DNA from: an uncultured Spirochaetales bacterium
Lineage (GTDB): Bacteria > Spirochaetota > Spirochaetia > JABEVK01
Direction of reading: 5' to 3'
Length of the DNA stretch: 64,000 nucleotides
Assembly (NCBI GenBank): GCA_964475005.1
Contig: CAYYUZ010000003.1
Span: forward strand, 3,500 to 67,499
Part shown: piece by piece, positions 9,706 to 58,795 of the stretch
Numbering within the stretch: the stretch's first letter is position 1
Layout of the letters: each line of letters starts with the position of its first letter
Translations under genes and position numbers: made by a program
The notes under the pieces: model-generated
Seen by the model: only the letters and a program-made list of their open reading frames with translations
Told to the model about the DNA's origin: nothing
Database searches by the model: none

Positions 9706-9854
9706 AGGGGAAAGAAAATAGCATAGAGTCGGCACAGGGGGAAGGGCACGCCGTAGCGCTCGGCGAATTGACAAAAGAAAACTGGCGTGTTAGGAAACTG
9801 GCATCACCTTCTCGTGAAGGTTTGTTCTTTGCAAGGAAATTTTCCGCTGATTGA

Positions 9855-10030
9855 CGTGCAACGAGAGAGCGTAGGTTTTGCTGTCGCAAAACGTACCGCC
9901 GAAGGGGCAAGATGGGAGTGCGAGCCGGACTCCGATCGAAACTCTCAGGCAAAACGTATCGTGGCAAAGACAGCACCTCTGGACGTAAGGGAACAGAGAA
10001 AAGGGCAAGCCAACGGCTTGCCTTTTTTTA
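9855..10030 (+). ncRNA. Glycine riboswitch (gcvT leader) with terminator expression platform
   Basis: Conserved aptamer strings are readable: CGAGAGAG ... ACCGCCGAAGGGGCAAG ... ACUCUCAGGCAAAAC ... GGCAAAGACAG ... CUGGACGUAAGGGAACAGAG. These are immediately followed by the hairpin GGCAAGCC-AACG-GCTTGCC plus TTTTTTT (10003-10030), 45 nt upstream of gcvT. Confidence 0.65.
10003..10030 (+). terminator. Rho-independent terminator (riboswitch OFF-state)
   Basis: 8-bp GC-rich stem GGCAAGCC/GGCTTGCC, 4-nt loop, 7-T tract. Confidence 0.7.
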
Positions 10031-11205: not shown

Positions 11206-11583
11206 ATGAACATCGACAAGAGCGCGAAATACCTATCCAGCCACGAATGGGCCCGCCCGGAAGGACCCGTTTACGTTTTGGGAATCAGCGACCACGCCCA
11301 GGAGAGCCTAGGCGACGTGGTCTACGTCGAACTGCCAAAGGTTGGCAGCACTTTCAAGAAGGGAGAGGTCTTCGGCGTCGTCGAGTCCGTCAAAGCGGCT
11401 AGCGACCTTTTTTGCCCTCTGAGCGGCGAGGTTGTCGCCGTCAACGAGCACCTCGCCAAGAGCCCGGAATCGGTCAACCGCGACCCCTACGGCGAAGGCT
11501 GGATGGTCAAGATCCGAGCCACCGAGTCCGGTGACTGGGACACCTTGCTTTCAGCACAAGACTACCAGCGGACGGCCTCATGA
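11206..11583 (+). CDS. gcvH: Glycine cleavage system H protein (lipoyl carrier)
   Basis: 125 aa; lipoyl-lysine motif [10 protein letters not shown]; AAGGAG RBS. Confidence 0.9.
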
Positions 11584-16702: not shown

Positions 16703-17436
16703 ACCCTGTTCCCCCCTTTCAATTTTCGGGCCGAAGTTCCCCGCTTCGCGCCTGGGACATCCGTTTTCGCCTTGGCGCCACCCTTCTGGTCAGCACAAGC
16801 CTTCTGGCCGCGCCGCCGGCCGCTCTTGGGCCCCTGGGGGCCGGAGTGCTCCTCCTTTTAAAACTGGCGGGCTCGACGTTGAAAGAGACCGCAAGGGTGG
16901 TCTGGGGTTTTGCTGGATTCGTTATTTTCTTTGTGGGACTGGGTTTGCTGTTCGAGCCGACCTGGACGCAAGCGGAATTCTTGGGAATCCAAGCAGCAAG
17001 GTTGACCCTGCTGCTGCTCGTCGGCCACGTGCTCTTTCTGGCCGCCACTCCCGCTGATGTTACAGAGGGAATTCGCTGGTGTTTGACCGGACTGGGACGC
17101 AGGCGGGCGTGGGGAGCGGCGAACATGGCGTCCTGGGCCTTGGCGTCGGTTCCTCTGATTCTTGACCAAGCCTCCACACTCACCGAGGCGGCCTTGCTAC
17201 GGGGCCATTCTGCGCGGCGTCACCCACTGCGCGCTGTCAAACTGCTAACCTTGGCGCTGCTGATCCGGACCGTCGGACGGAGCACAGACTTGACCGATGC
17301 CCTTCAAGCCCGAAGCTTTGGCTTGTCGGTTCCGCAATCGAACCTCAAGGCTGGGCTAAAGGACGGGCTTGCTTTTGGCGGCGCGGCGGCTTGGTGCGCG
17401 GCGTCGTGGGCCTTTGGGAGTATAGTGTCTCCATGA
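16699..17436 (+). CDS. ecfT: ECF transporter T (transmembrane) component
   Basis: The frame of ORF 16456..17436 carries a CbiQ/EcfT-like membrane protein. It was trimmed to the TTG at 16699, which overlaps the ecfA stop (TTGA), because the upstream part overlaps ecfA out of frame. Confidence 0.6.
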   Translation: MNPVPPFQFSGRSSPLRAWDIRFRLGATLLVSTSLLAAPPAALGPLGAGVLLLLKLAGSTLKETARVVWGFAGFVIFFVGLGLLFEPTWTQAEFLGIQAARLTLLLLVGHVLFLAATPADVTEGIRWCLTGLGRRRAWGAANMASWALASVPLILDQASTLTEAALLRGHSARRHPLRAVKLLTLALLIRTVGRSTDLTDALQARSFGLSVPQSNLKAGLKDGLAFGGAAAWCAASWAFGSIVSP

Positions 17437-18416
17437 GAGAATCGAGTCCTCGGCGCAATCCTTGGGGAACCCTCTTCCTGGTGGCCGCCGCCGTGGGAAC
17501 CGTGGCCGTCCACTGGCAGCCTTGGTGGCCTGCCGACGCCACACGCCTGTTTCGCGCGTTCTTCGAAGCCTCGCTCGTAGGGGCGCTGGCCGACTGGTTT
17601 GCCGTCACCGCGCTGTTCAAACGTCCCCTGGGGTTGCCTCTGCCGCATACCGACCTGCTGGTGCGAAAAAAGGACCAACTGGTCGAGGCCCTGCCCAGGT
17701 TCCTGGGCAGCTTCTTGGTGCCCGAACGCCTCAACCCGGTTCTCCTCAGTGTCGACTGGTCGGCGCTTGTGCTGGAGGAGCGGACCGCCGAGGCCCTCGA
17801 CGAACTAGCAGCCGAGGGGCTTCACTCGCTATGGACCGCGTCGGCCCGGCCGGAGTGGGAACAGAAGGCCATTACCGTAGCCGCTGATTTGTTCCACCGG
17901 GAGCTGAGCCTGCACAAAGACGCCTTGGTCGGTCCCATCACTGACATGATCAAGCGCCACGTCGGCTGGAGAGGCTTGTTTGTTCAGCGCCAGTCGATAG
18001 ACGAGGCCGTGGACGGGTTTCTAGAGGAACTCCGGGCTGTCCGCGACCGGCCGAATCACGCGATGCGGCGTTCGCTCGCTACGGCGTTTCACCAGTCCTG
18101 GCCCAGACTCGTCGAGCAGCTCAAGCCGTCCCGCTGGTCGGCGGCCACGCGCAAACGCCTCGAACTCGACCCCGCCTTCCGTCAGCAATTCAACCAGCGG
18201 GTGGGTGAGCTCGCGGTCAGTGTTTGGCAACGGAGCGCCGCTTCAACAGTGCTCACCAACGCGCTTTCCTATGTTCTGTCTCAGACCGATGCCAGGGGCC
18301 TGGCCGACCGCATCGAGGGCGCCGTCCGCAACGACCTTCAGTACATCCGGGTCAACGGAGCTTTGGTCGGCGGTCTGGCGGGACTGGCGCTCGAGCTGCT
18401 CAAAACCCTCGGGTGA
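17433..18416 (+). CDS. DUF445-like membrane-associated protein
   Basis: Start trimmed to MRESSP, which overlaps the ecfT stop (ATGA); two N-terminal TM helices followed by a long helical domain. Family assignment is tentative. Confidence 0.4.
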   Translation: MRESSPRRNPWGTLFLVAAAVGTVAVHWQPWWPADATRLFRAFFEASLVGALADWFAVTALFKRPLGLPLPHTDLLVRKKDQLVEALPRFLGSFLVPERLNPVLLSVDWSALVLEERTAEALDELAAEGLHSLWTASARPEWEQKAITVAADLFHRELSLHKDALVGPITDMIKRHVGWRGLFVQRQSIDEAVDGFLEELRAVRDRPNHAMRRSLATAFHQSWPRLVEQLKPSRWSAATRKRLELDPAFRQQFNQRVGELAVSVWQRSAASTVLTNALSYVLSQTDARGLADRIEGAVRNDLQYIRVNGALVGGLAGLALELLKTLG

Positions 18417-18492
18417 CCAGGCAGTTTCTTTGGGTTCCAAATAGCTTACACTGAATTGACAGGGCCCCTCGCGGGCCACCAAGGAGACTCCT

Positions 18493-19200
18493 ATGAAGAA
18501 GATGCTTTCGGTTGCCGTGCTCATCTGCGGAACCGCCGGGCTGTTTGCTGCCGACCTTTCGGTCGAGGCCCAATTCACGATCACCGGTGCCAACGCCACG
18601 AAGAGCTTTTTGACCGTCGTAGGTCCGACAGCTTCAGTCAACAAAGACAGCGTTGACCCCAAGAAAGTCGACGTTGTCGGCGCCGCCAGCTTGAAAAAGG
18701 GTACGGAAGTCTGGAACACCTACAGGGCCGACGCGGCTAAGTCCCCCACCCTCCCCTTTGGTTTTCAGAACCTCGTCAAGTACGGCGTTTCCAACGTCGC
18801 CCAGTTCAAGTCCGACGGTCTTTCTGTGGTCAAGGCCGCCGACGGCGTGATCACGATTCAATTCGTCCACCGCGGAACCGCGATGAAACTCGTGACCGAC
18901 GAGACCGGCAAGCTTGACGTGGTCACGGGAACCCAGCTGAAGCGGACGATCGGTTTCATCGAGGAAGGCAAGGAACAAGTGCTCAGCACCGAGTTTGCCC
19001 CCAGCGGAACGATCAAGGATGCAGATTTTGCGAAGATTTGGGACGCCAAGGTGCCCGGAGGGACGGTGGTCGGCAAGGCCAAAACCACCGCGCTGCTCCC
19101 CGATGTTTCGCCTTCCAAGACCCCTTACGTCGGCGTGGTGCAATTCACCTTGACCGGCGAGGTCCTCAACATCAAGGGCGATTTCACGGTCAAGAAGTAG
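18493..19200 (+). CDS. Secreted protein of unknown function
   Basis: 235 aa with a clear signal peptide (MKKMLSVAVLICGTAGLFAADLSVEAQ); GGAGAC RBS; no recognisable domain. Confidence 0.5.
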   Translation: MKKMLSVAVLICGTAGLFAADLSVEAQFTITGANATKSFLTVVGPTASVNKDSVDPKKVDVVGAASLKKGTEVWNTYRADAAKSPTLPFGFQNLVKYGVSNVAQFKSDGLSVVKAADGVITIQFVHRGTAMKLVTDETGKLDVVTGTQLKRTIGFIEEGKEQVLSTEFAPSGTIKDADFAKIWDAKVPGGTVVGKAKTTALLPDVSPSKTPYVGVVQFTLTGEVLNIKGDFTVKK

Positions 19201-19479
19201 ACCTTTCTAGAAATTTTCACAAGAGATAGCGGAAGAAGAATTTCTGCCGAGCGAAGCGATGGATACCCCACGACCCCGAACCCGCCGTCAAGCGAAGCGA
19301 TGGCCGCCAAACCGGCCCAAACCCGTCGCTGAGCGAAGCGAAAGCCGTGTAGAACGGGCGCCGGAGATCGTCGTTTTGGCGAAGTCGACGGAAAGCGAGG
19401 AGCGCAGTCGCACTGGAAGTGCGTCGAGCACCGGAGCCGACCGAGACAAAGCCAAAACGGCGAGGTCCAAGCCCTTGTT

Positions 19480-19518
19480 GTGGACATAGCGCGAGGGGTA
19501 TCCTCGCGCTATGTCCAC
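19480..19518. promoter_or_regulatory. Perfect 17-bp inverted repeat (5-nt spacer) enclosing the dnaE start codon
   Basis: GTGGACATAGCGCGAGG-ggtat-CCTCGCGCTATGTCCAC; the dnaE ATG (19511) lies in the right arm. Either an mRNA hairpin occluding initiation or an operator for a dimeric regulator. Confidence 0.55.
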
Positions 19519-22500
19519 CTACGTCCCCCTCCATTGCCATACCGATTACAGCCTGCTCGACGGGGCGGCCTCGGTTGAGAAATTCGTTGCCAAGGCCAAG
19601 ACCTTGGGGCTTCCCGCACTGGCGATTACCGATCACGGCAACCTGTTCGGCGCCCTCAAATTCTGGAAAGAGTGCAAGAAGCAGGACATCAAACCCATCA
19701 TCGGGTGTGAGTTGTACGTCGCTCCCGGAAGCCGTTTCGACAAGGCCCGCAATGAGGAAGACAACCGGTATTATCACCTCGTTCTTCTGGCGCGGACCGA
19801 CGAGGGTTACCAGAACCTCCGCGTCCTATCGAGTCTGGGCTACACCGAAGGGTTCTACTACAAACCGCGGGTTGACTGGGAACTGATCCAGAAACACCAT
19901 GCTGGACTGATCTGCCTGTCGGCGTGCCTCGGCGGTGAAATTCCCCAGCTGATCCTGAGCGGAAAAATCGACCAGGCGCGGGCACGCATCATCGAGTACC
20001 GCGATCTTTTCGGCCCCGACGGCTACTGGCTCGAGCTGCAGAACCACGGCCTCGACGAACAGCAGACCGTCAACGAGAAGTTGATCCAACTCTCTGCTGA
20101 AACGGGAGTTGGACTAGTGGCGACCAACGACAGCCACTACGTCGACCGCGAGGACGCCGATGCCCAGGACACTTTGATCTGCATCGGCACCGGCAAGAAG
20201 AAAAACGACGTCAAGCGGATGAGCTTCGGAGCGCACGAGTTCTACGTCAAGAGTTTTGACGAAATGGAAGGACTCTTCAACGGGACTCCTGAAGCTCTGG
20301 CCAACACCCTGAAGATCGCCGATCTATGCCAGATGGAGATGAACCTGCCGGGGCCCCTGCTACCGGAATTCGAGGTGCCCGCGGACTTCATGGCGCGAAG
20401 CGAGGAGCTTGTCGGACCTGCGCTCCGCCGCCTGGAAGCCCGTCTAACCGACCAGGCCGAAGTGCGCAAGCGCCTGTTCGAACCCGCGACCCAGTACTTT
20501 GTCTGGCAGGCCAACAACGGTCTGTACAAGCGTTACACCAGCGTGACCCCCGAGATCCTCGACCGCATCGACTACGAGCTGCAGATCATCATCAGCATGG
20601 ACTTCGTGGGGTACTTTCTCATCGTCGCCGACTTCATCAACTGGGCCAAGGACCACGACATTCCCGTAGGCCCCGGGCGCGGTTCGGGCGCCGGTTCCAT
20701 TGTCGCCTACAGCCAGAGGATCACCGATATCGATCCTTTGAAGTACAAACTCCTTTTTGAACGTTTTTTGAACCCCGAACGCGTGTCGATGCCCGACTTC
20801 GACATCGACTTCTGCATGGACCGCCGTCCCGAAGTGGTCGATTACGTCACCAAACGCTACGGCGACGACAAGGTCGGCCAGATCATCACCTTTGGAACTC
20901 TCAAGCCCAAAGCCGCCCTCAAAGACGTGGCCCGTGTTCTCGATATCGGGTTCACCGAAGCCAACGCGCTCTCGGCCCTGGTCCCCGACGACCCGACCTT
21001 CAAGCTCCACCTTCACGAACTGCTAGCCGATCCCCTTCCCCAAAAATACGTGGACAAAGGCTGGCAGGAGAACAGCAACAAACTGAGGGAGTACTACCAG
21101 CGCGGTTCGGTGTACAAGGACCTTTTCGACACCGCCATGCGCCTCGAGGGCCTGAGCCGCCACGCTTCCACGCACGCTGCGGGGGTGGTCATCGGCAAGA
21201 CCCGCCTGACCGACTATGTGCCGCTCTACAAGGACCCCAAGACCGGACAGGTTACCACGCAGTTCACCATGGACCTTCTGGAAGAGTGCGGTCTGGTGAA
21301 GATGGACTTTTTGGGGCTGGCCACGCTCACCTTGATTCGCAACACGCTCAAGCTCATCGCCAAACGCGGCATTGTCCTGAAAGAAGAAGATATTCCCGAC
21401 ACCGATGAAAAGACCTTCCAAATGCTGAGCGAGGGCCGTTCGGCCTCGGTCTTCCAGTTTGAGTCGACAGGCATGCAGAAGGTTCTCAAACAGGCCAAGC
21501 CGACCTGCATCGAGGACCTGATCGCCTTGAACGCACTCTACCGCCCGGGCCCCATGGAAGAGATCCCCAACTTCATCAAGGGCAAGCAGAACCCGCGCAG
21601 CATCCAGTGGCTGCACGAGAGTCTCAAGGAGTGCCTGAAGGAAACCTACGGCGTCATCGTCTACCAGGAACAGGTCATGGAAGTCGCCCAGATCGTTGGC
21701 GGGTACAGCCTGGGCGGCGCTGACATCCTGCGCCGGGCCATGGGGAAGAAGAAGAAGGAGGAGATGGACAAGCAGGAGGTCAAATTCCTCGAAGGCGCCC
21801 AGAAAAAAGGTTACTCCAAAGAAGAGGCCAAACGGATTTTCGACTATCTTGTCCCGTTCGCCGGGTACGGCTTCAACAAGAGCCACGCCGCCGCTTACTC
21901 GGTGCTGGCCTACCAAACCGCTTGGCTGAAGGCCAACTATCCTGCCGAATACATGGCCGCCAACCTCACCAACGAGATGGACAATCAGGAAAAGATGGGC
22001 GACTACATGGCCGAGGCACGAGCCCTTGGGCTGAAGATTCTGCCGCCCCACGTCAACACCAGCGAGCGGCTTTTCACCGTGGTCGACGGCCAGATCGTCT
22101 ACGGGCTTCAGGGAGTCAAAAACATCGGCGAAGGCGCGGTCGAAGAGATTTTGAGGGCAAGGCAGGCGGGCGGACCGTTCAAAGATTTTCTCGACGTGCT
22201 CGACCGCGTCGACCTGAGAACGGTCAACAAGAGGGTGTTCGAGACGGGCATCCAGTGCGGGGTGTTCGACGGCCTGGGTCCCAACCGCGCTACCCTGTTC
22301 CATAACCTCGATAAGGCCATCGAGTGGGCCCAAAAACAAAAGGACGAGAAGGCCTCGGGGCAAGGAGGGCTGTTCGAGGGCACCGACGACGCCGTGGCTC
22401 CGCTCGAAATCGTCGCTTTTGACGAATGGCCTCAGAAGGAACTTCTCAACTTCGAAAAGGTCAACCTCGGTACCTTTGTGTCGGGCCATCCTCTCGACCC

Positions 22501-23089
22501 CATCCGCGAACAGTGGAAGCAAACCGTCACCGTCGACCTTTCCAAGCCCCGCAAAACCGAAGGCGACGATAAGGTCGACCAAGTCATGGGCCTGGTTACC
22601 GGCATCAAGACCATTATTACGAAAAAGGGCGACAAGATGGCGTGGGCGACCTTGGAAGATTTCGCCGGAACCATCGAACTCGTGTTTTTTCCCCGGACCC
22701 TCAAACAGGTGGAAATGATTCTGAACGCGGAGGGCCAGCCGGTACTTGTCGAGGAAGCCGTCCTTGGGTTCCGAGGCAAGGTCGAGATCGGCGACGAGAA
22801 GGCCAAGTTCATCGTGAACGAGGTCGTTCAACCGCAGGGGTTAGCACAGGTCAGGGCGCTCACCGTCCACGTGAAGGTCAAACAGAAGGCCTGGACCGAA
22901 GCCGAGGTCGAGAAGGTGCTCCACTACTTTCTTGACCACCAAGGAGGCTCGCCGCTTGTCCTTCACCTCACCGACGGTCAAAGGGAATTGAAAGTGAAAG
23001 CCCCCAACGGGGTAAGAGTCGCCTCCAGCCAAGAAATCCTTGAGAAATTTCAGAGCCAGAACTGGGCCGAATCGGTGTGGCGGGAGTAG
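19511..23089 (+). CDS. dnaE: DNA polymerase III alpha subunit
   Basis: 1192 aa; PHP domain start YVPLHCHTDYSLLDGA. Full-length alpha subunit. Confidence 0.9.
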   Translation: MSTYVPLHCHTDYSLLDGAASVEKFVAKAKTLGLPALAITDHGNLFGALKFWKECKKQDIKPIIGCELYVAPGSRFDKARNEEDNRYYHLVLLARTDEGYQNLRVLSSLGYTEGFYYKPRVDWELIQKHHAGLICLSACLGGEIPQLILSGKIDQARARIIEYRDLFGPDGYWLELQNHGLDEQQTVNEKLIQLSAETGVGLVATNDSHYVDREDADAQDTLICIGTGKKKNDVKRMSFGAHEFYVKSFDEMEGLFNGTPEALANTLKIADLCQMEMNLPGPLLPEFEVPADFMARSEELVGPALRRLEARLTDQAEVRKRLFEPATQYFVWQANNGLYKRYTSVTPEILDRIDYELQIIISMDFVGYFLIVADFINWAKDHDIPVGPGRGSGAGSIVAYSQRITDIDPLKYKLLFERFLNPERVSMPDFDIDFCMDRRPEVVDYVTKRYGDDKVGQIITFGTLKPKAALKDVARVLDIGFTEANALSALVPDDPTFKLHLHELLADPLPQKYVDKGWQENSNKLREYYQRGSVYKDLFDTAMRLEGLSRHASTHAAGVVIGKTRLTDYVPLYKDPKTGQVTTQFTMDLLEECGLVKMDFLGLATLTLIRNTLKLIAKRGIVLKEEDIPDTDEKTFQMLSEGRSASVFQFESTGMQKVLKQAKPTCIEDLIALNALYRPGPMEEIPNFIKGKQNPRSIQWLHESLKECLKETYGVIVYQEQVMEVAQIVGGYSLGGADILRRAMGKKKKEEMDKQEVKFLEGAQKKGYSKEEAKRIFDYLVPFAGYGFNKSHAAAYSVLAYQTAWLKANYPAEYMAANLTNEMDNQEKMGDYMAEARALGLKILPPHVNTSERLFTVVDGQIVYGLQGVKNIGEGAVEEILRARQAGGPFKDFLDVLDRVDLRTVNKRVFETGIQCGVFDGLGPNRATLFHNLDKAIEWAQKQKDEKASGQGGLFEGTDDAVAPLEIVAFDEWPQKELLNFEKVNLGTFVSGHPLDPIREQWKQTVTVDLSKPRKTEGDDKVDQVMGLVTGIKTIITKKGDKMAWATLEDFAGTIELVFFPRTLKQVEMILNAEGQPVLVEEAVLGFRGKVEIGDEKAKFIVNEVVQPQGLAQVRALTVHVKVKQKAWTEAEVEKVLHYFLDHQGGSPLVLHLTDGQRELKVKAPNGVRVASSQEILEKFQSQNWAESVWRE

Positions 23090-23164: not shown

Positions 23165-24793
23165 GTGATGTCCAAGCCGTCCGACCCTTCCAATATAAAA
23201 CGTGAAAGGCCCATTGCTCCTTGGCGGATCTGTCATCTTGGCGGAATTGTCAGTATCGCGTTCGCGGTCCTTGTCGCTTCCTGTGAGAATCCCAGCCGTG
23301 TTGTCTGGAAGGCTCCCCCGGCGTCGCCACCGGCGCCTACTCCGCCTTGGGCGGTCACCAATACCGCCGGAACGGACTTTTCCCAGTTTGATAGCGTAGG
23401 GATAGACGGTTCGGACAACGTGTACGCCGTGGGGGCCCTGAAGAACCTCGCTACGTACAGTTTCGGAAACCTGCCGCTGTTCACCACAATAGACACTGGA
23501 GGCGCCAACGACAGCGTCTTGGTGAAATACAATTCCTCAGGAACGGCGCTTTGGACACGGATCGAAACCTTGGGAAACCAGGGAGACAACCAGTTTGTGG
23601 CGGTTGCCGTCGATACAGCGGGGAATTCGTACGTCGCGGGATACAGCCGGACCAGCGGGTGGCCGATTGCGTGGGGGAACGGCGTCAGCTTCGTTCCGTC
23701 ATCGACCTATCCTTGGGAGCTGCTTTTTATGAAGTTCGATACCAACGGGTCGGTCCAATGGATTTCGACCCAAACAGGTGGATACATCAGCCTTAGCCGC
23801 GGGGCGGCCGTTGATTCCTCAGGAAACAGTTTTCAGGTGGGCGACATCGAATCCACCGGGGGCTTCACCATCGGCAGCTCGGCGGGAGGATCGGTCGGAG
23901 TCACAGGAATCAACAGCACGGACAACGGCACCGGGAACAACGCCAATGGGTTTTTGGTCAAATACAACACCAGCGGCGTTCCGTCGTGGGTCCAAACCCC
24001 TATTTCAGGAACCCCTGTCCCCCTGGCCACCGACTACTTCGCGGCGGCCGCTGACAGCTCGGGAAACATCGCGGTAGCCGGTTACCTTTCCGGGGCAGGC
24101 GGGGGGAGCGTGGATTTTGGAGGACAATCCGCGGCCGGCGGCTACACCACGAACGTCGGCGGAAACGCCAACGCGCTCGTTGTGAAATATGACACCAATG
24201 GAGCCGCACAATGGGCTCGAACCACGGGGGCCGGGGCTCCAGGACCCAGCACTTTCTCGGGCGATTGTGTGGATTCCGCCGGCGACATTTACGCCGTTGG
24301 GTGGGTCACAGGCCCCGGAACCTTTGATTTTGGCAGCGGCCAAACCTTCAACGTCACGGTTTCTGGCCACAATGCAGTTCTCGTCAAATACAATGCCTCT
24401 GGCACCACGCTTTGGGCGAGAAGTTCCACGGGAGGAAGCGCGGCGAGCGAGTTTGCAGGGGTGGCTATCGACAAGAACGGGAATGTCCTCGTGTCAGGAC
24501 AATTCACCGGTCCCGGGAACTGTCAGTTTGGAAGCCAAACCGTCTCCGGGTCCGTCAGCGGAACGAACGCTCTGATGGTGAAGTACGACGCCAACGGCAA
24601 CGCGATGTCCGCGGCGACGGTGACATCGGCATTGGCACCCAGCCAGTTCTACGGGGTGGCGGCCGATTCTGCTGGACACCCCCACGCGGTGGGTTTTGTG
24701 AACGGCAACGCGCCGTTTTCCTTCGGCAACAATTTGTCGGTCACTGGGCCAGCGGCCAGCCTCAACAACGCTCTGATCGTCAAGTATCCGTGA
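23165..24793 (+). CDS. Secreted beta-propeller repeat (SBBP-like) protein
   Basis: Signal/TM at the N-terminus, then about 8 degenerate roughly 50-aa repeats of the pattern G(N/D)xYV(A/T)G..., similar to PF06739. Confidence 0.5.
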   Translation: MMSKPSDPSNIKRERPIAPWRICHLGGIVSIAFAVLVASCENPSRVVWKAPPASPPAPTPPWAVTNTAGTDFSQFDSVGIDGSDNVYAVGALKNLATYSFGNLPLFTTIDTGGANDSVLVKYNSSGTALWTRIETLGNQGDNQFVAVAVDTAGNSYVAGYSRTSGWPIAWGNGVSFVPSSTYPWELLFMKFDTNGSVQWISTQTGGYISLSRGAAVDSSGNSFQVGDIESTGGFTIGSSAGGSVGVTGINSTDNGTGNNANGFLVKYNTSGVPSWVQTPISGTPVPLATDYFAAAADSSGNIAVAGYLSGAGGGSVDFGGQSAAGGYTTNVGGNANALVVKYDTNGAAQWARTTGAGAPGPSTFSGDCVDSAGDIYAVGWVTGPGTFDFGSGQTFNVTVSGHNAVLVKYNASGTTLWARSSTGGSAASEFAGVAIDKNGNVLVSGQFTGPGNCQFGSQTVSGSVSGTNALMVKYDANGNAMSAATVTSALAPSQFYGVAADSAGHPHAVGFVNGNAPFSFGNNLSVTGPAASLNNALIVKYP

Positions 24794-24861
24794 CCGTCAG
24801 GCCGCGGTATCTCCATTTTTCCCCTCTTCTCTTCTAGCTGGAAAAGCGTTACCCTCAACCC

Positions 24862-25455
24862 ATGAATTGGCTTCCTCCCATCATGGGGGTCGTGTCGTCC
24901 CTGTTGCAGGTCTACATGCTCCTTCTCGTCATCCGCATCGTTCTGACGTGGGTTTCCATGGACCACGGCCATCCGGTGATCCGCATTCTTCATTCTATCA
25001 CCGACCCCTACCTCAACTGGTTCCGACGGTTCAGGTTTCTGGTTCTGGGAAACCTCGATTTTTCTCCTCTGGCCGCACTCCTCGTGGTCAATTTCTTTGC
25101 CAGTCTTGTCCGCATGATTGGAATGTACGGCCAGGTGAAGCTGGGGATCGTTCTGACGATTCTTGTCCAGCTGCTCTGGGAGGCCGTCTCGTTCTTCTTT
25201 CTCCTCTTGGGAATCCTGGCCCTTGTACGGTTTCTGGCTCTTCAGTTCCGCTGGGGGGGCCAGGCGATCTGGGCGTACCTTGACGCCATTCTGCAGCCGG
25301 CCGCCAACGGCCTTGGACGACTTCTTCGTCCCCGTTCGATCCCGTCCTACACGACCACGTTGCTGGCTCTTGCGGCCCTCAATCTTATCGTCTGGGGCGT
25401 GGGGCGCTTTTTGATCGAACTTCTGACCCGCTTCCTCGTGGCCCTGCCCGTGTGA
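24862..25455 (+). CDS. yggT: YggT family membrane protein (tandem YggT repeats)
   Basis: 197 aa with two YggT-like units (LLVIRIVLTWV...DPYLNWFRRF). Confidence 0.55.
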   Translation: MNWLPPIMGVVSSLLQVYMLLLVIRIVLTWVSMDHGHPVIRILHSITDPYLNWFRRFRFLVLGNLDFSPLAALLVVNFFASLVRMIGMYGQVKLGIVLTILVQLLWEAVSFFFLLLGILALVRFLALQFRWGGQAIWAYLDAILQPAANGLGRLLRPRSIPSYTTTLLALAALNLIVWGVGRFLIELLTRFLVALPV

Positions 25456-25462
25456 GGCGTGG

Positions 25463-27550
25463 GTGCTCCTCGGCGAACTGACGGTTTCCGTGACCCGGCT
25501 CAAGGGAGCCGGACCTGCGGCCGTCCGTGACTTGGCCAAGCTGGGAATCTCCACCGTGGCCCAGCTGCTGGAGCACCTTCCTCGCGACCACATCAACCGC
25601 CGCGACGAGGTGACTTTTCGTCAAGCCATGGCGACAGGACGTCCCGCCAACACAGTGGCCAGGGTCGTCCTTCACTCGCACTTTGGGCCGCCGCATCGAG
25701 CCACCCTGAAACTCCACCTGATCGACCGCGAAGGAACACCGGCGGAACTGCCTTGTTTCAACCGTCCGTTCCTTGAAAAGTCCTGGCCCGTCAACGCGTG
25801 GGTCTGGGTTTTCGGCGTACCCGAGATGAAGTACGGAAGCCTTCAGATCGCGGCCTTTGATCTCGACCTGCCTCCCACAGGCTTTGAACCCGGGGCTGCC
25901 TTGGGCGAGGCCGGCACCCTGGTCCCCCTCTATTCCTTGGCAGGAACCCTCAATCAAGCCGGAGTGGCCAGACTTGTCGCTCAGGCCTGGCACGACTACG
26001 TTCCCGAACCCCTCGAAGACGAACTGCCTCCCGAATACGCTCGCCTTCATGGCCTGTGGCCCCTCGATCAGGCGTTGCGGACCCTGCACAGGCCGCCCAC
26101 ACCCGAGGCGCTGGCCCAGGCGAGGCGGACGTGGATTCACCGCGAACTGTTTCACCTTCAGACGGCCATTCTTCGTCGCCCGACGGCCCTCAAGACCAAC
26201 GGAAGACCGCCCCAGAGGTTCTCCCATACGCTCAAGAACCACTTTCTGGAACGGTTGCCGTTTGCCTTGACACCAGACCAGAAGACCGTGGTCGCCGAAA
26301 TCGAGGCCGACCTCGAATCGGAAAAGCCCATGGCGCGTTTGCTTCAAGGTGACGTGGGCAGCGGGAAGACCCTGGTGGCCTTCCTTTCGGCCCTCCCCCT
26401 GATTGAGGCCGGATACCAGTGTGCGCTGATGGCGCCGACCGAGCTTCTGGCTCTGCAGCACGCGGAAAACGCCGCCAAGCTGCTCGATCCCCTGGGGGTC
26501 AAAATTGCCTTTCTGTCGGGAAACCTGAAAGCTGCCGGGCGGGGCCTGCTGCTCGCCGAACTGGCTTCCGGAGGAATCGACTTTGTGGTGGGCACGCACG
26601 CGCTGTTTAGCCAAGGGGTCGAGTTCAAGAACCTCCGCTACGTCGTCATCGACGAACAGCACCGCTTCGGCGTGGTCCAGCGCCAGGCCATGACCCGCAA
26701 AGGTCCCGACCCCGATCTGCTCTTGATGAGCGCGACGCCCATTCCCCGCACATTGGCGTTGACCGCATTCGGAGACCTCAAGACGTCGGTGATCAAGACC
26801 ATGCCGCTGGGACGCAAGCCCATCGTCACCCACACTAACAAGATGAGCAACCAGCAGAGGGTCTACGATTTTGTCCGCCAGGAGCTGAGGGCCGGACGGC
26901 AAGCGTATTTTGTGTATCCCCTCATCGAGGCCAGCGAAGTCCTCGACCTCAAAGACGCCCAGAGCATGACCGAGAGTCTGGCCCAGATCTTCGAAGGGTT
27001 TCGTGTGGGCCTCATCCACAGCCGCCTCGATGATGACCACAAGCGCTCGGTCATGGAGGAATTCAGCCAGGGAAAAGTTCACGTTCTGGTCGCCACCAGC
27101 GTGGTCGAAGTGGGCGTTGACGTAGCCAACGCCACGTGCATGGTGATCGAACACGCCGAACGCTTTGGTCTCTCGGCGCTGCATCAGCTACGAGGCCGTG
27201 TCGGGCGCTCCGATTTGCAGAGCTATTGTTTTCTCGTGTACGGAGAAGCCTTGACCGACGACGGCAAGACACGAATCCGGGTCATGATGGAAACGACTGA
27301 CGGCTTCCGTATCGCCGAAGAAGATTTGAAACTGCGCGGTCCCGGCGACATCGCGGGAATGAAACAGTCGGGCTTCCTCAAGCTCAAGGCGGCCGACCTT
27401 GGCCGGGATCTCGACATCCTTGTCGGTTGCCGCGACTACCTGACAGAACTCCTAACCCGCGATCCGGGATTTTTGGAGCCGGCCCAGGCCGGGTTGCGCC
27501 GGCTCTGGGCCAACTGCCCGCCCTTCAGCGACGAACTTGTGGCACTTTAG
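25463..27550 (+). CDS. recG: ATP-dependent DNA helicase RecG
   Basis: 695 aa; wedge domain, helicase motif I DVGSGKTLVA, DExH (VIDEQHRFG), TRG motif region. Confidence 0.9.
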   Translation: MLLGELTVSVTRLKGAGPAAVRDLAKLGISTVAQLLEHLPRDHINRRDEVTFRQAMATGRPANTVARVVLHSHFGPPHRATLKLHLIDREGTPAELPCFNRPFLEKSWPVNAWVWVFGVPEMKYGSLQIAAFDLDLPPTGFEPGAALGEAGTLVPLYSLAGTLNQAGVARLVAQAWHDYVPEPLEDELPPEYARLHGLWPLDQALRTLHRPPTPEALAQARRTWIHRELFHLQTAILRRPTALKTNGRPPQRFSHTLKNHFLERLPFALTPDQKTVVAEIEADLESEKPMARLLQGDVGSGKTLVAFLSALPLIEAGYQCALMAPTELLALQHAENAAKLLDPLGVKIAFLSGNLKAAGRGLLLAELASGGIDFVVGTHALFSQGVEFKNLRYVVIDEQHRFGVVQRQAMTRKGPDPDLLLMSATPIPRTLALTAFGDLKTSVIKTMPLGRKPIVTHTNKMSNQQRVYDFVRQELRAGRQAYFVYPLIEASEVLDLKDAQSMTESLAQIFEGFRVGLIHSRLDDDHKRSVMEEFSQGKVHVLVATSVVEVGVDVANATCMVIEHAERFGLSALHQLRGRVGRSDLQSYCFLVYGEALTDDGKTRIRVMMETTDGFRIAEEDLKLRGPGDIAGMKQSGFLKLKAADLGRDLDILVGCRDYLTELLTRDPGFLEPAQAGLRRLWANCPPFSDELVAL

Positions 27551-27971: not shown

Positions 27972-28385
27972 ATGAAGAACGACTTGGAAAACAGCGTGAT
28001 CTTTGGCAAAGGTGATTCAAATCCCTTTGGGCAATATTTCAGTGGACAAAGTTATCTGAACATCCTTACTCGCGAAGGTGTCTTGACGGCCAATGTCACC
28101 TTTGAGCCTGGATGTCGAAACAACTGGCATATCCACCAAGCGACTGAAAAAGGCGGACAGATCCTGCTCGTTACTGGTGGAAGGGGTTGGTATCAGGAGT
28201 CAGGAAAAGCGGCGCGGGAGCTCATCGCCGGAGATGTCGTTCATATTCCATCTGGTATCAAACACTGGCATGGTGCTGCCCGAGACAGTTGGTTTGTCCA
28301 TATCGCGATTGAGATTCCTGGGGTCGGTGCGAGCACCCAATGGCTAGAACCAGTGTCTGACGCCGAGTATGGGAAGTTGAAGTAA
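27972..28385 (+). CDS. Cupin-2 domain protein
   Basis: 137 aa; cupin motifs NWHIHQATEKGGQILLVTGG and HIPSGIKHWHGA; markedly lower GC than its flanks. Confidence 0.6.
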   Translation: MKNDLENSVIFGKGDSNPFGQYFSGQSYLNILTREGVLTANVTFEPGCRNNWHIHQATEKGGQILLVTGGRGWYQESGKAARELIAGDVVHIPSGIKHWHGAARDSWFVHIAIEIPGVGASTQWLEPVSDAEYGKLK

Positions 28386-32348: not shown

Positions 32349-32605
32349 CACTCCAGCGGTTCTGCCCTTGAGTGAGCGAAGCGATTTCCGCTGAAACCCT
32401 TTCTGCTGATGCTTTTTCACTTTCAGCATCTGCTGAAACGAATTCTCCTGATGAAGATTTGTCCTCTTCATCTGCTGAACGGGTTTCTCCTGATGAATGT
32501 TTGGTTTCAGCATCTGCAGAATTGAATTCTTCAGATGAAGTTTTCCTTTCGACATCAGCTGAACGTCCGTCAGCACATGCTGAAACAAATTCTCCTGATG
32601 AATTT
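32349..32605. repeat. Degenerate tandem repeat array, about 5 copies of a 40-57 bp unit with internal palindrome TCAGCAtcTGCTGA
   Basis: Units (TCAGCATCTGCTGAAACGAATTCTCCTGATGAAGATTTGTCCTCT and variants) read directly. AT-rich. Both strands give repetitive ORFs judged non-coding. Confidence 0.6.
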
Positions 32606-45404: not shown

Positions 45405-47278
45405 AGAAACCCCTCAGTTTCTTTGCGAACAAGGCCGAAAACGGCATCGTCTTCTTGTTTCTGCTGCTCCTGGCCGTGCTTCCTGTGGCCGAGATCATCG
45501 CGCGGATCGGCTTCAAGACGGGAATTCCCTCGGAAGTCGGCCTGATGGCCCAGATCGTTTTGGTTCTGGGTTTCTTTGGTGCCATGGTCGCCGCCCGCGA
45601 GGGAGAGCACCTCAACATCGCCTTGGTCAATCATCTCAACAGCGGAAGGGCGCGCGTCATCGTGGGTTTGGTGAGCTCAACCATAGCTACCACCATCCTG
45701 ACCATTTTCGCGTGGAGTTCGATTTCGTTCGTCCTGCTCAGTTTCAACCCGTGGACCATCATCGGCTTCGTTCCCGATGGGCTTGTCGCGCTGGTGATGC
45801 CACTGGGCTACTCCGTCATGGCCTGGAGGATGGCGGTCTTCCGCACACCGGGGGGACGAAAACTCCGCCTACCTGCCGTAGGAATTCTTGTCGGGACAGT
45901 GTTGGCCGTCCCGGTCATCGTCAAGATCTTCTGGGGTGCCAACGTTCCGCCCGGGCTTGCGGTCATTTCGAACCTTGTCGATGCCTTCTACCGCGACTAC
46001 AGCCTTGCGGCCGTTCTTGTCATCATTGCCTCGGCCTTTGCCGGCACGCCCTTGTTCGTGGTCATCGGCTCGGTCGCACTGTTCTTCATCAAACAGGCCG
46101 GCGGTGAGTTCGAAATCGTCGCCAACCAAGCCTACACAGAATTGTCGCTGACCACCCTCCCCGCCATTCCCCTGTTCACCGTTGCCGGGTTCATGCTCTC
46201 GGAAAGCCAGGCAGGAGCCCGGTTGATCGGCGTTTTCCGCAACCTGTTCGGCTGGATTCCGGGCGGTATGATCATTGCGACGGTCGTCGTCTGCGCGTTC
46301 TTCACCACCTTCACGGGCGCCTCGGGGGTGACCATTATCGCCCTGGGGGGTTTGCTTTCAAAGATCCTCGTCGACCACGCCAAGTTTCCCCGCGGGTTCG
46401 CTCTTGGCTTGATCACGGCGGTGGGGAGCATAGGCATTCTGTTCCCGCCCAGCCTGCCCATCATTCTTGTAGGAGCCTCGACCCAGACGAGCATCCTTCA
46501 AATGTTTGCCGGCGGCATTGTCCCGGGGGTGCTCCTTATCCTTGCTATGATCGGCTACGGAATCTTCTTTGCCATCCGGCACAAGGTGCCCGTAGAAACG
46601 TTCTCCTGGAGGCAGACCGCCTCGTCGGTGAAAGCCTCCATCTGGGAGATTCTGTTGCCGGTTTGGCTTGTGGCTGGCTATTTCACAGGACTTCTGACCA
46701 TCGTCGAGACCGCGGCTTTCGCCGTGATCTACACCATCGTGATCGAAGTGTTCGTCAACAAAGACATCTCGTTGCGCTACCTTCACCGGGTCTTCATCAA
46801 GGGTGTGCCCATTATCGGCGGGGTGCTGGCCATCTTGGCCGCGTCGCAGGCCCTTTCGTACTTCATTGTCGATTCCGAAGTGCCGCAAGTTCTCACCAAG
46901 TGGGTGCAGTCGTACGTCACCTCGCCCTACCTCTTCATTCTCCTTCTCAACTTGGCGCTGCTTGTCGCCGGCAGTTTGATGGACATCTTTTCGGCCATCA
47001 TTGTGCTGCTGCCTCTTGTCGCGCCGCTGGGAGCGGCCTACGGTCTCAATCCTGTGCAGGTCGGTATCATCTTCATCATGAACATGGAGGTCGGGTTCCT
47101 CTTGCCGCCCATCGGCCTGAACCTGTTCCTGGCCTCTTACAGGTTCAGGCGGCCCTACCTCGAAATCGCCCGCAACGTATTACCGTTTCTGGTGATTCAG
47201 ATTGCCGTCAACTTGCTGGTGTCGTACGTTCCCTGGTTTACCACGGCCCTTGGGGCCTTCTTTCAACCCCACGTCTAA
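45401..47278 (+). CDS. TRAP transporter fused permease (DctQ-DctM)
   Basis: Start trimmed to MKKPLSFF (ATGA overlap with tatT); about 16 TM helices. Confidence 0.8.
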   Translation: MKKPLSFFANKAENGIVFLFLLLLAVLPVAEIIARIGFKTGIPSEVGLMAQIVLVLGFFGAMVAAREGEHLNIALVNHLNSGRARVIVGLVSSTIATTILTIFAWSSISFVLLSFNPWTIIGFVPDGLVALVMPLGYSVMAWRMAVFRTPGGRKLRLPAVGILVGTVLAVPVIVKIFWGANVPPGLAVISNLVDAFYRDYSLAAVLVIIASAFAGTPLFVVIGSVALFFIKQAGGEFEIVANQAYTELSLTTLPAIPLFTVAGFMLSESQAGARLIGVFRNLFGWIPGGMIIATVVVCAFFTTFTGASGVTIIALGGLLSKILVDHAKFPRGFALGLITAVGSIGILFPPSLPIILVGASTQTSILQMFAGGIVPGVLLILAMIGYGIFFAIRHKVPVETFSWRQTASSVKASIWEILLPVWLVAGYFTGLLTIVETAAFAVIYTIVIEVFVNKDISLRYLHRVFIKGVPIIGGVLAILAASQALSYFIVDSEVPQVLTKWVQSYVTSPYLFILLLNLALLVAGSLMDIFSAIIVLLPLVAPLGAAYGLNPVQVGIIFIMNMEVGFLLPPIGLNLFLASYRFRRPYLEIARNVLPFLVIQIAVNLLVSYVPWFTTALGAFFQPHV

Positions 47279-57985: not shown

Positions 57986-58795
57986 ATGAAACCCTTCAAC
58001 CCGAAATGGGCCTTGCCGATCCTTTTCGTTCTTGCCGCGTTCCCGGTTTTTTCGGACTCCTTCATTGCGCAGCCCATCACCGAGTACGGCGTCAAGATCG
58101 TCGGCTTGTCGTACATCATGATGGCCCTCTGTATTCTGTTTTTCCTTCTCGTCGTCGGAGTCATCGGCTACTCGCTATGGAAGTTCCGTGCCAAGGGACC
58201 GAACGAAGAGGGTGTGGCCATCCACGGCCACACAGGGCTTGAAATCGTCTGGACCGTGATTCCGGCGCTCATCATGCTGGCGTTGGGTTTGGCCAGCACA
58301 GTGCTTGTTTTCGACCAGCTCAACCCTCCCAAAAAGACGTTGATTGTCAAAGTGACCGGGTACCAGTTCGGCTGGGACTTCGAATACTACCAGGCCGACG
58401 CGTCGCTGAGTTCGGGCGCCTCCGACGTGCAAACCGTCCGCAACATCTGCGGCAACCCGGCCGTCATGGTCAAGATCAAGAGCCTCCACGTGAAAAGCAT
58501 CGATGAGTTCACCATCCCAAAAGATACAGATATTCGGTTTCTGACGAGTTCAAAAGACGTTGTCCACAGTTTCTGGGTCCCTGAATTTCTGATCAAACGC
58601 GACATGGTGCCGGGGTTGGTCGCCGACTTCTGGGTCCATCCGAACCAAACCGGCGACTTTGTGGCCAAGTGTGCGGCCCTGTGCGGCGCCAGCCACGGCC
58701 TTATGGTCGCCAAGGTCCACGTTGTTGACCGGCAGCAATTCCAAACCTGGTTGGCAGCCCAACCCGGGGCTGATCTCAGCCCTCTAGCTAATTGA
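57986..58795 (+). CDS. coxB: Cytochrome c oxidase subunit II (CuA)
   Basis: Signal peptide plus 2 TM helices; CuA ligands H...CAALCGASH..M. Confidence 0.8.
   Translation: MKPFNPKWALPILFVLAAFPVFSDSFIAQPITEYGVKIVGLSYIMMALCILFFLLVVGVIGYSLWKFRAKGPNEEGVAIHGHTGLEIVWTVIPALIMLALGLASTVLVFDQLNPPKKTLIVKVTGYQFGWDFEYYQADASLSSGASDVQTVRNICGNPAVMVKIKSLHVKSIDEFTIPKDTDIRFLTSSKDVVHSFWVPEFLIKRDMVPGLVADFWVHPNQTGDFVAKCAALCGASHGLMVAKVHVVDRQQFQTWLAAQPGADLSPLAN

Follow-up and report, generated by a model that had tools for sequence, protein, structure and literature searches.

A perfect 39-nt palindrome at the dnaE start of an uncultured spirochaete, lying over a probable leaderless promoter

We analyzed a 64-kb stretch of DNA (the window) from an uncultured Spirochaetales bacterium, a deep-branching member of the Spirochaetota, in which the start codon of dnaE, the gene for the alpha subunit of DNA polymerase III, lies within a perfect inverted repeat of 39 nt. 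This palindrome is non-random, far beyond chance, and is single-copy, with both arms at one locus only in all searchable data. Its position coincides with that of a putative promoter from which dnaE would be transcribed without a leader. We tentatively read it as a young, tolerated template-switch palindrome, specific to this lineage, on a leaderless dnaE promoter. The palindrome is probably a curiosity at the level of the DNA rather than an RNA element that switches translation: translational control is unlikely, and a role as an operator is unsupported.

Reading of the sequence and a repeat search gave a perfect inverted repeat of 17+5+17 nt at window positions 19480-19518, GTGGACATAGCGCGAGG-GGTAT-CCTCGCGCTATGTCCAC, which agrees base for base with the repeat described in a first-pass annotation made from the letters alone. 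It has the following parts.
19480 to 19496: left arm GTGGACATAGCGCGAGG, which, from the sequence and the promoter geometry, would fill the spacer of the putative dnaE promoter and overlaps the final base of its -35 hexamer
19497 to 19501: loop GGTAT, the sole asymmetric part, which gives the TAT of the putative -10 hexamer on the + strand only
19502 to 19518: right arm CCTCGCGCTATGTCCAC, in which the putative -10 box ends and which goes on with the discriminator CGCGCT, the putative +1 and ATG, and the first 8 nt of the dnaE open reading frame (ORF)

All 17 pairs between the arms are Watson-Crick and none is G-U. The flanks, CTTGTT and CTACGT, show no duplication. After the stem, the sequence reads CTACGTCCCC (+ strand) and AACAAGGGCT (- strand). 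The palindrome is the longest inverted repeat in the 64 kb; the runner-up among perfect repeats, GCCTGAACCTGT-N12-ACAGGTTCAGGC at 47115-47150, has 12-nt arms. When the window was simulated 100 times with a first-order Markov model, the longest perfect hairpin arm (loop 3-12) measured 8-15 nt, with a mode of 9-10, and an arm of 17 nt was never reached (0/100). Allowing up to 3 mismatches, the arm occurs in the window at these two sites only, with 0.15 expected. As RNA, the 39-mer folds with -34.0 kcal/mol (z -9.5), which bears out the earlier description of a very stable hairpin; as single-stranded DNA, each strand folds with -22.9 kcal/mol. The region from -35 to +25 of dnaE folds with -35.5 kcal/mol, compared with -12.9 +/- 5.7 kcal/mol for the starts of 38 other genes of the window, none of them below -24.8 kcal/mol, making the dnaE start an extreme outlier in folding energy.

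The locus was found in three assemblies. Besides the window contig, these are a JGI contig (L043, Ga0265320_10028252) that is 100% identical to window positions 17098-20012, and an ENA contig (L029) that comes from another sample and represents a second strain. The ENA contig carries 14 single-nucleotide polymorphisms (SNPs) in 2.8 kb aligned, none of them between 18475 and 20040, and its palindrome is identical. An assembly artefact is ruled out by the three assemblies, one of them from a strain with 14 SNPs.

We scanned 185,579 species genomes, the JGI metagenomes and viral contigs for exact matches to the arm, and the viral contigs also for the inner palindrome. This search uncovered 28 matches in the species genomes, 52 in the JGI metagenomes and 2 in the viral contigs. 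When the genome and metagenome matches were checked for a partner, they were lone arms from unrelated taxa (best partner with at least 6 mismatches), except for the same locus. The JGI collection includes the contig identical to the locus, so that it covers this organism, and no other contig there has both arms. The two matches in viral contigs were single arms, and the inner palindrome was not found in those contigs. In the 64-kb window, we found no partial symmetric copies or half-sites, and the dnaE intergenic region had no similar copies elsewhere in the window beyond chance 10-13-mers.

These counts bear on the idea that the palindrome is a copy of a dispersed palindromic repeat, such as a repetitive extragenic palindromic (REP) element, a bacterial interspersed mosaic element (BIME) or a relative of the miniature inverted-repeat transposable elements (MITEs), or else the footprint of a mobile element. 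In size and in its G+C-rich hairpin shape it resembles a REP element, and its arm begins with GTGG, which we take to be like the GT[AG]G head of such elements. Unlike REP elements, however, the palindrome is single-copy and overlaps a start codon. Many copies and an extragenic position, often with target-site duplications in the case of MITEs, mark REP, BIME and MITE sequences, whereas here there is one copy per 64 kb even with 3 mismatches, no second locus with both arms and no target-site duplication, and the right arm holds the native ATG of dnaE. The first-pass annotation had named a dispersed repeat as the finding that would count against regulation; copies were sought, and only this locus has both arms. 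One copy in the window and lone arms in the collections rule out a dispersed repeat there, the organism's remaining genome lying outside the scan, and we regard such an origin as scarcely credible.

The product of the ORF at 19511-23089 is a complete DnaE, in which PHP, Pol3 alpha, finger, HHH and OB domains are all present. The ATG at 19511 is the only possible start of this ORF, because an in-frame TAG lies upstream at 19487-19489 and no other ATG, GTG or TTG occurs from there to the H-x-H motif of the PHP domain at codons 8-10. In 11 relatives, DnaE begins M-x-x-F-V-H-L-H, and the distance from the start to the motif equals that in the window. The ATG occupies positions 10-12 of the right arm, which also includes 5 more coding bases. 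The start codon thus stands where the first-pass annotation had placed it, and a sequence resembling a ribosome-binding site, GAGGGG, is likewise present as it had presumed, at the top of the left arm and in the loop. The spacing from GAGGGG to the ATG is 12-13 nt, whereas the genes of the window with a Shine-Dalgarno sequence have AGGAG or GGAGG at 5-9 nt.

To place this start among related ones, the regions 5' of dnaE were compared in the 11 relatives (L082-L092), seven of which were also folded (L082-L088). The best non-self matches in the protein database to the N-terminal 400 aa of the window's DnaE are 54-56% identical (Spirochaetia, Marispirochaeta, Treponema, Sediminispirochaeta). In 10 of the 11 relatives, a sigma-70-type promoter lies directly 5' of dnaE, consisting of a TTTACA-like -35 box, 17-18 nt and TATxxT. 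Four of these promoters are of a leaderless type (L084, L086, L088, L089): 6-7 nt separate the end of the -10 box from the ATG, and a Shine-Dalgarno sequence is lacking, which together indicate a leaderless mRNA. The other six are leadered (L082, L083, L085, L087, L090, L092), with the -10 box farther upstream and then a Shine-Dalgarno sequence of the GAGGGG or GGAGG type. The distance from the -10 box to the called start is 19-24 nt in L082, L083, L087, L090 and L092. In L085, the called ATG overlaps the -10 box and lies upstream of the true start, which is probably a downstream GTG that begins V-S-F-V-H-L-H. The gene is called as 2-3 fragments in L082, L083, L084, L089 and L090, which look like frameshifts in long-read assemblies, and because of these fragmented calls the database matches appear as partial proteins of 400-700 aa.

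The dnaE of the window has the layout of the leaderless class, namely TTGTTG, 18 nt, TATCCT, 6 nt and ATG, and the following elements can be assigned.
19475 to 19480, + strand: putative -35 hexamer TTGTTG, assigned by comparison, with a 3/6 match to TTGACA, 18 nt 5' of the -10 box
19499 to 19504, + strand: putative -10 hexamer TATCCT, with 6 nt between it and the ATG; the hexamer recurs in L086, where the distance is also the same, and in L087
19505 to 19510, + strand: putative discriminator CGCGCT, G+C-rich, between the -10 box and the putative +1
19493 to 19498, + strand: Shine-Dalgarno-like GAGGGG, 12 nt 5' of the ATG, probably neither transcribed from the proximal promoter nor used
19511 to 23089, + strand: dnaE (DNA polymerase III alpha, 1192 aa), which would be translated from a leaderless mRNA

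The pattern TTG-N16-19-TANNNT-N5-8-ATG occurs at 4 of the 1355 ATGs in the window. A TANNNT hexamer lies 5-8 nt upstream of 1.8% of all ATGs in the window, compared with 6 of 55 first gene starts (19511, 24862, 27972, 49528, 49618 and 55078), all six without a Shine-Dalgarno sequence. About one such first start would be expected, and our Poisson estimate puts P on the order of 10^-3. The layout of the window's dnaE recurs in the dnaE genes of 4 of the 11 relatives and in 5 or more further genes of the window. More broadly, -10-like hexamers 6-7 nt before a first start without a Shine-Dalgarno sequence were observed at 24862, 27972, 49528 (- strand), 49618, 55078, 57986 and 17433. Examples are TTGACT-18-TAGCTT-7-ATG at 27972 and TTGACA-18-CATATT-7-ATG at 57986, and the pair 49528/49618 is divergent. 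Genes without a leader seem to be frequent in this organism.

Borrelia also has leaderless mRNAs, and in Leptospira they are common (PMC5243855, PMC5314773). The promoters mapped for leaderless genes elsewhere resemble that of the window in that TANNNT ends 6 nt before the ATG, no Shine-Dalgarno sequence is found at 5-9 nt, and the 5' end is unstructured. At dnaE, a putative -10 box ends 6 nt before the start codon (about 6-8 nt being typical of leaderless genes), the start is an ATG and a Shine-Dalgarno sequence at a functional distance is lacking, and an mRNA beginning at 19511 is predicted to be unpaired over its first 27 nt. Promoters of this kind, in which the ATG serves as +1 and the -10 box precedes it by about 7 nt, have been mapped in Leptospira, Borrelia, Mycobacterium and Deinococcus. 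None of these promoters is known to lie in a perfect palindrome, whereas in the window the -10 box is in the loop and the spacer mirrors the discriminator and first codons. Judged by this comparison of promoters, dnaE is probably leaderless here, its -10 box being formed by the loop and the right arm.

We propose the following origin for the palindrome. Transcription would be directed by TTGTTG (19475-19480), an 18-nt spacer, TATCCT (19499-19504) and 6 nt, with the A of the ATG (19511) as +1. The left arm would be the promoter spacer, and the loop and right arm would hold the -10 box, discriminator, +1 and codons 1-3. The mRNA of dnaE itself would start in the right arm without the left arm, the hairpin could not form on it, and its 5' end would be unstructured, as leaderless translation needs. 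With the left arm absent from the gene's own mRNA, translational sequestration would lose its main support. The arm would have been made by a fold-back (template-switch) replication error that copied the right arm, inverted, into the spacer. The right arm must be the template because it carries the constrained elements (discriminator, +1 and ATG), and the spacer would be the one neighbouring stretch free to vary; the copied arm would halt where the -35 hexamer begins. The copy would have persisted with the -35 box, the -10 box, their spacing and the ATG all intact, and an essential promoter would tolerate the palindrome because it was the spacer that received the new arm. The arms would still be perfect either for the youth of the event or through continued correction by template switching. 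A dedicated regulator is not assumed. As side effects, we would predict that RNA reading through from the upstream gene buries the AUG in a stem of -34 kcal/mol and is untranslated, that dnaE expression then depends on its own promoter, and that a dyad is ready for exploitation by a dimeric protein.

The features expected of a template switch, perfect Watson-Crick arms with the new arm in unconstrained sequence, are both found at the locus, the left arm being the spacer. DNA-templated copying is pointed to by the 17 Watson-Crick pairs out of 17, without G-U. Perfect inverted repeats in bacteria have been attributed to template-switch correction (PMC5941160), and template switching is accepted as the way in which they arise and are maintained. 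The palindrome resembles such repeats of E. coli in having perfect Watson-Crick arms, one in variable and one in constrained sequence, and in being a singleton and lineage-specific. It differs in its 17-nt tract, which is long, and in that the outgroups are too distant to reveal the imperfect ancestral repeat, or the cluster of mutations, by which such events are recognized, so that its origin is inferred. Quasipalindrome and template-switch mutations in E. coli are also a subject of PMC7202029, and inverted-repeat expansion at a yeast promoter is one of PMC13100816. If correct, our interpretation would make the locus a clean natural case of an essential promoter that tolerates a long palindrome made by template switching.

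A further repeat arrangement was observed in the same intergenic region. The sequence CGGCGAGGTCC is directly repeated 303 nt apart (19155-19179 and 19458-19484), and the 14-mers after each copy, TCAACATCAAGGGC and GCCCTTGTTGTGGA, are mutually inverted with 86% identity. This may be a further trace of template switching or may be chance, since 11-mers recur at chance level in the window.

The hairpin at the dnaE start was absent in 11 of 11 relatives, which at 54-56% identity are distant. At the dnaE starts of the seven folded relatives, perfect inverted repeats reach 4-5 bp at most, and the upstream sequences of L089-L092 contain no comparable palindrome. Of the paired outcome that the first-pass annotation had set against its own proposal, absence upstream of dnaE in relatives and dispersal as a repeat, the first part was thus found (in relatives of 54-56% identity), yet the second was not.

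Several points weigh against a tolerated template-switch palindrome on a leaderless promoter. The nearest relatives, only 54-56% identical, are too far to show an ancestral quasi-palindrome or selective maintenance. The second strain, at 0.5% divergence, keeps the palindrome, and with about 0.2 differences expected in 39 nt this is uninformative. A strict consensus scan of 19100-19650 called no promoter at dnaE, the -35 hexamer is weak (3 of 6 consensus positions), and the transcription start site (TSS) at about 19511 is inferred from promoter comparison. De novo templated copies of 17 nt are rare, and that one became fixed in an essential gene's promoter could just as well be a sign that the palindrome is useful.

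Usefulness could take the form of a DNA operator, to which a dimeric or dimer-of-dimers repressor would bind, blocking RNA polymerase and so controlling transcription of the replicative polymerase. The first-pass annotation had called the palindrome an ideal operator, and the position fits: the dyad is centred on the -10 box, covers the putative TSS and spans -31 to +8 of the putative promoter, the classical position for occlusion. The symmetry holds at the DNA level over all 17 pairs, and the element is intact in the three assemblies, including the second strain. What such an operator would bring with it was not found. There is no second or partial symmetric site in the 64 kb or the same metagenome, and no transcription-factor gene adjoins dnaE; the closest ones lie 4 kb upstream (BirA) and 9.5 kb downstream (a MerR-family gene), and each has a more obvious neighbouring target. 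Protein contacts need fewer than 17 of 17 symmetric positions, the arms are about twice the length of a half-site, and the relatives lack the dyad. The claim of an operator therefore stood for position but not for a second site, an adjacent regulator or conservation, and we consider this explanation rather doubtful.

Operators of the LexA or CIRCE/HrcA type resemble the palindrome in placing a dyad on the -10 box and TSS of a housekeeping gene. The palindrome differs from them in lacking a LexA match, a regulon, a cognate regulator and conservation. The earlier remark that it does not resemble LexA boxes holds, as CTGT-N8-ACAG and GAAC-N4-GTTC are absent from 19440-19540. CIRCE, the target of HrcA, is a perfect 9-N9-9 repeat that also acts in mRNA; a comparison with CIRCE, NrdR and Rex boxes seems likewise to speak against an operator. 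We also considered a DnaA box (TTATCCACA-like 9-mer). The candidate ATGTCCACA at 19479-19487 (- strand) has 2 mismatches, and 91 such sites in the window against 85.6 expected place it at chance level.

The palindrome could instead make the promoter sensitive to supercoiling, with extrusion of a cruciform removing the -10 box (in the loop) and the spacer from the duplex, so that dnaE would follow superhelical density. A perfect palindrome with a short 5-nt loop exactly over the core promoter, worth -22.9 kcal/mol per single DNA strand, would suit this role. However, the relatives lend it no comparative support, and short G+C-rich palindromes without A+T-rich flanks extrude slowly, cruciforms of this size being rarely detected in vivo. 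We consider this explanation very unlikely. Taken together, a functional DNA-level switch on dnaE, whether an operator for a symmetric repressor or a cruciform promoter that senses supercoiling with its -10 box in the loop, is also no better than doubtful. Either would be of real interest if true, as this uncultured deep-branching spirochaete would then have dedicated transcriptional control of a leaderless dnaE. To our knowledge, dedicated control of the main replicative polymerase gene is hardly documented in bacteria, and a literature search on dnaE plus hairpin found nothing relevant.

The first-pass annotation had favoured control at the level of translation. In this scenario, transcripts from a promoter upstream of 19480 would carry a hairpin whose stem hides GAGGGG and the AUG and must be opened for translation, for example by ribosomes ending a 76-codon ORF (19259-19489, with its TAG in the left arm), by a helicase or by RNase III. 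Several observations are in line with it. The stem is very stable (-34 kcal/mol), the dnaE start is the folding outlier described above, GAGGGG lies in the left arm and loop, and the upstream ORF, which is in the dnaE frame, ends at 19487-19489 within the left arm. The + strand of the intergenic region is structured beyond shuffled sequences (z -3.1, compared with z -0.75 for the - strand), suggesting transcription, and a scan of 19100-19650 gave no canonical terminator after the upstream gene. However, the geometry of the proximal promoter, common to relatives and to other genes of the window, should leave the left arm off the main transcript. A looser scan of the 110 nt before the ATG gave the proximal promoter only, and the strict scan of 19100-19650 gave none. 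GAGGGG is 12-13 nt from the ATG, a wider spacing than the 5-9 nt of genuine Shine-Dalgarno sequences in the window. The ATG of the upstream ORF lacks a Shine-Dalgarno sequence, the ORF has no Pfam match and is uncalled as a gene in L029, and the relatives lack the hairpin.

The strength of the stem is itself a difficulty. Known reversible sequestering hairpins have stabilities of a few to about -15 kcal/mol, and a stem of -34 kcal/mol would be a block rather than a reversible switch. If the left arm were transcribed, the palindrome would resemble RNA thermometers and the MS2 replicase hairpin in having the AUG paired in a stem. It differs from these in that its left arm is probably outside the mRNA and in that its stem has no mismatches or bulges, is several-fold more stable and shows neither an opening alternative nor covariation. 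Neither marginal stability nor alternative pairing was found (17 perfect pairs, -34.0 kcal/mol), and conservation with compensatory changes was not seen in the relatives, which are distant (54-56%). The only competing complement is a 12-nt stretch at 19261-19272 that can form 11 of 12 pairs with the hairpin apex. The proposed translational control was therefore not borne out, given a putative promoter in the palindrome that would leave the left arm off the mRNA, a GAGGGG spacing of 12-13 nt and a stem that is too stable. We judge regulation by an RNA hairpin to be improbable. The hairpin would form only on transcripts reading through from the upstream gene, which has the same direction, and such read-through is conceivable. 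The likelier outcome is a caution: where genes are leaderless, a hairpin that appears to bury a start codon may be outside the mRNA, with the promoter inside the hairpin.

The 12-nt complement, GGATACCCCACG, lies just past the first core of a 41-nt repeat described below and pairs with the apex CGAGGGGTATCC (19492-19503), including a perfect 9-mer against the loop. This complementarity could be chance or long-range pairing. A search of Rfam at the palindrome for a known RNA family gave only sub-threshold matches to microRNA-precursor hairpins.

The palindrome might also serve the end of the upstream transcript. Together with an imperfect hairpin at 19355-19475, it would stop or pause polymerase or block 3' exonucleases, setting and stabilizing the 3' end of the mRNA of the upstream 235-aa secreted protein. 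Both genes have the same direction with no T-tract terminator between them, and the + strand of the intergenic region is specifically structured. Against this, neither strand has a U-tract after the stem, the organism has at least one canonical terminator with a hairpin and T-run, and the distance from the stop codon to the stem is 280 nt, with the dnaE start codon forming part of the stem. We consider this function quite improbable. Intrinsic terminators share with the palindrome a G+C-rich hairpin in an intergenic position, here 39 nt, but the palindrome has no T-tract. A terminator of that kind was rejected, as the stem lacks a T-run and the scan of 19100-19650 gave no terminator-like site. 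The canonical example, a textbook terminator at 42573-42548 (- strand), has an 11-bp stem followed by T7.

The imperfect hairpin at 19355-19475 is long and lies directly 5' of the palindrome. Its closing stem, CGUCGUUUUGGC / GCCAAAACGGCG, contains one G-U pair, which works on the + strand only, and the z-scores given above for the two strands refer to a fold of 19201-19479. This hairpin may be a structured 3' untranslated region of the upstream gene or a small RNA, and it has no Rfam match. A perfect 10-bp palindrome, TTTCTAGAAA, is located at 19204-19213, 3 nt past the stop of the upstream 235-aa gene. The ORF at 19259-19489 encodes a charged peptide of low complexity. Together with a mirror ORF at 19487-19125 (- strand), it has no Pfam match and is uncalled in L029, and both were treated as non-coding. 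We also observed three degenerate tandem units with an exact 41-nt period at 19246-19368, each starting with GCNGAGCGAAGCGA (19246, 19287 and 19328), of which units 1 and 2 are about 70% identical by eye. Tandem Repeats Finder reported no array in 19000-19700 despite the visible degenerate periodicity. The motif AGCGAAGCGA occurs 4 times in the window compared with 0.2 expected, the fourth time at 32375. The stretch 32380-32560 is rich in motifs of the CTGCTGA and CTGATGAAG type, such as tttcagcatctgctgaa. On both strands its ORFs are all short and overlapping, and it may represent either a gene that contains repeats or a repeat that is non-coding.

The neighbours of dnaE are the upstream gene for the secreted protein of unknown family (235 aa) and genes for a DUF445 protein, an SBBP-repeat protein, YggT and RecG. 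The order dnaE-yggT-recG is kept in the Marispirochaeta-like L082 and L083 and is found in the window at 23165-27550, where dnaE and yggT are separated by an inserted gene for the SBBP beta-propeller-repeat protein (542 aa). Upstream of dnaE, every relative has different genes. Elsewhere in the window, the only Rfam family found was a glycine riboswitch aptamer at 9852-9971 (RF00504, 51 bits), which is located upstream of gcvT (10075). This gene is followed by an ORF at 11206-11583 and then by a fused gcvP of 938 aa.

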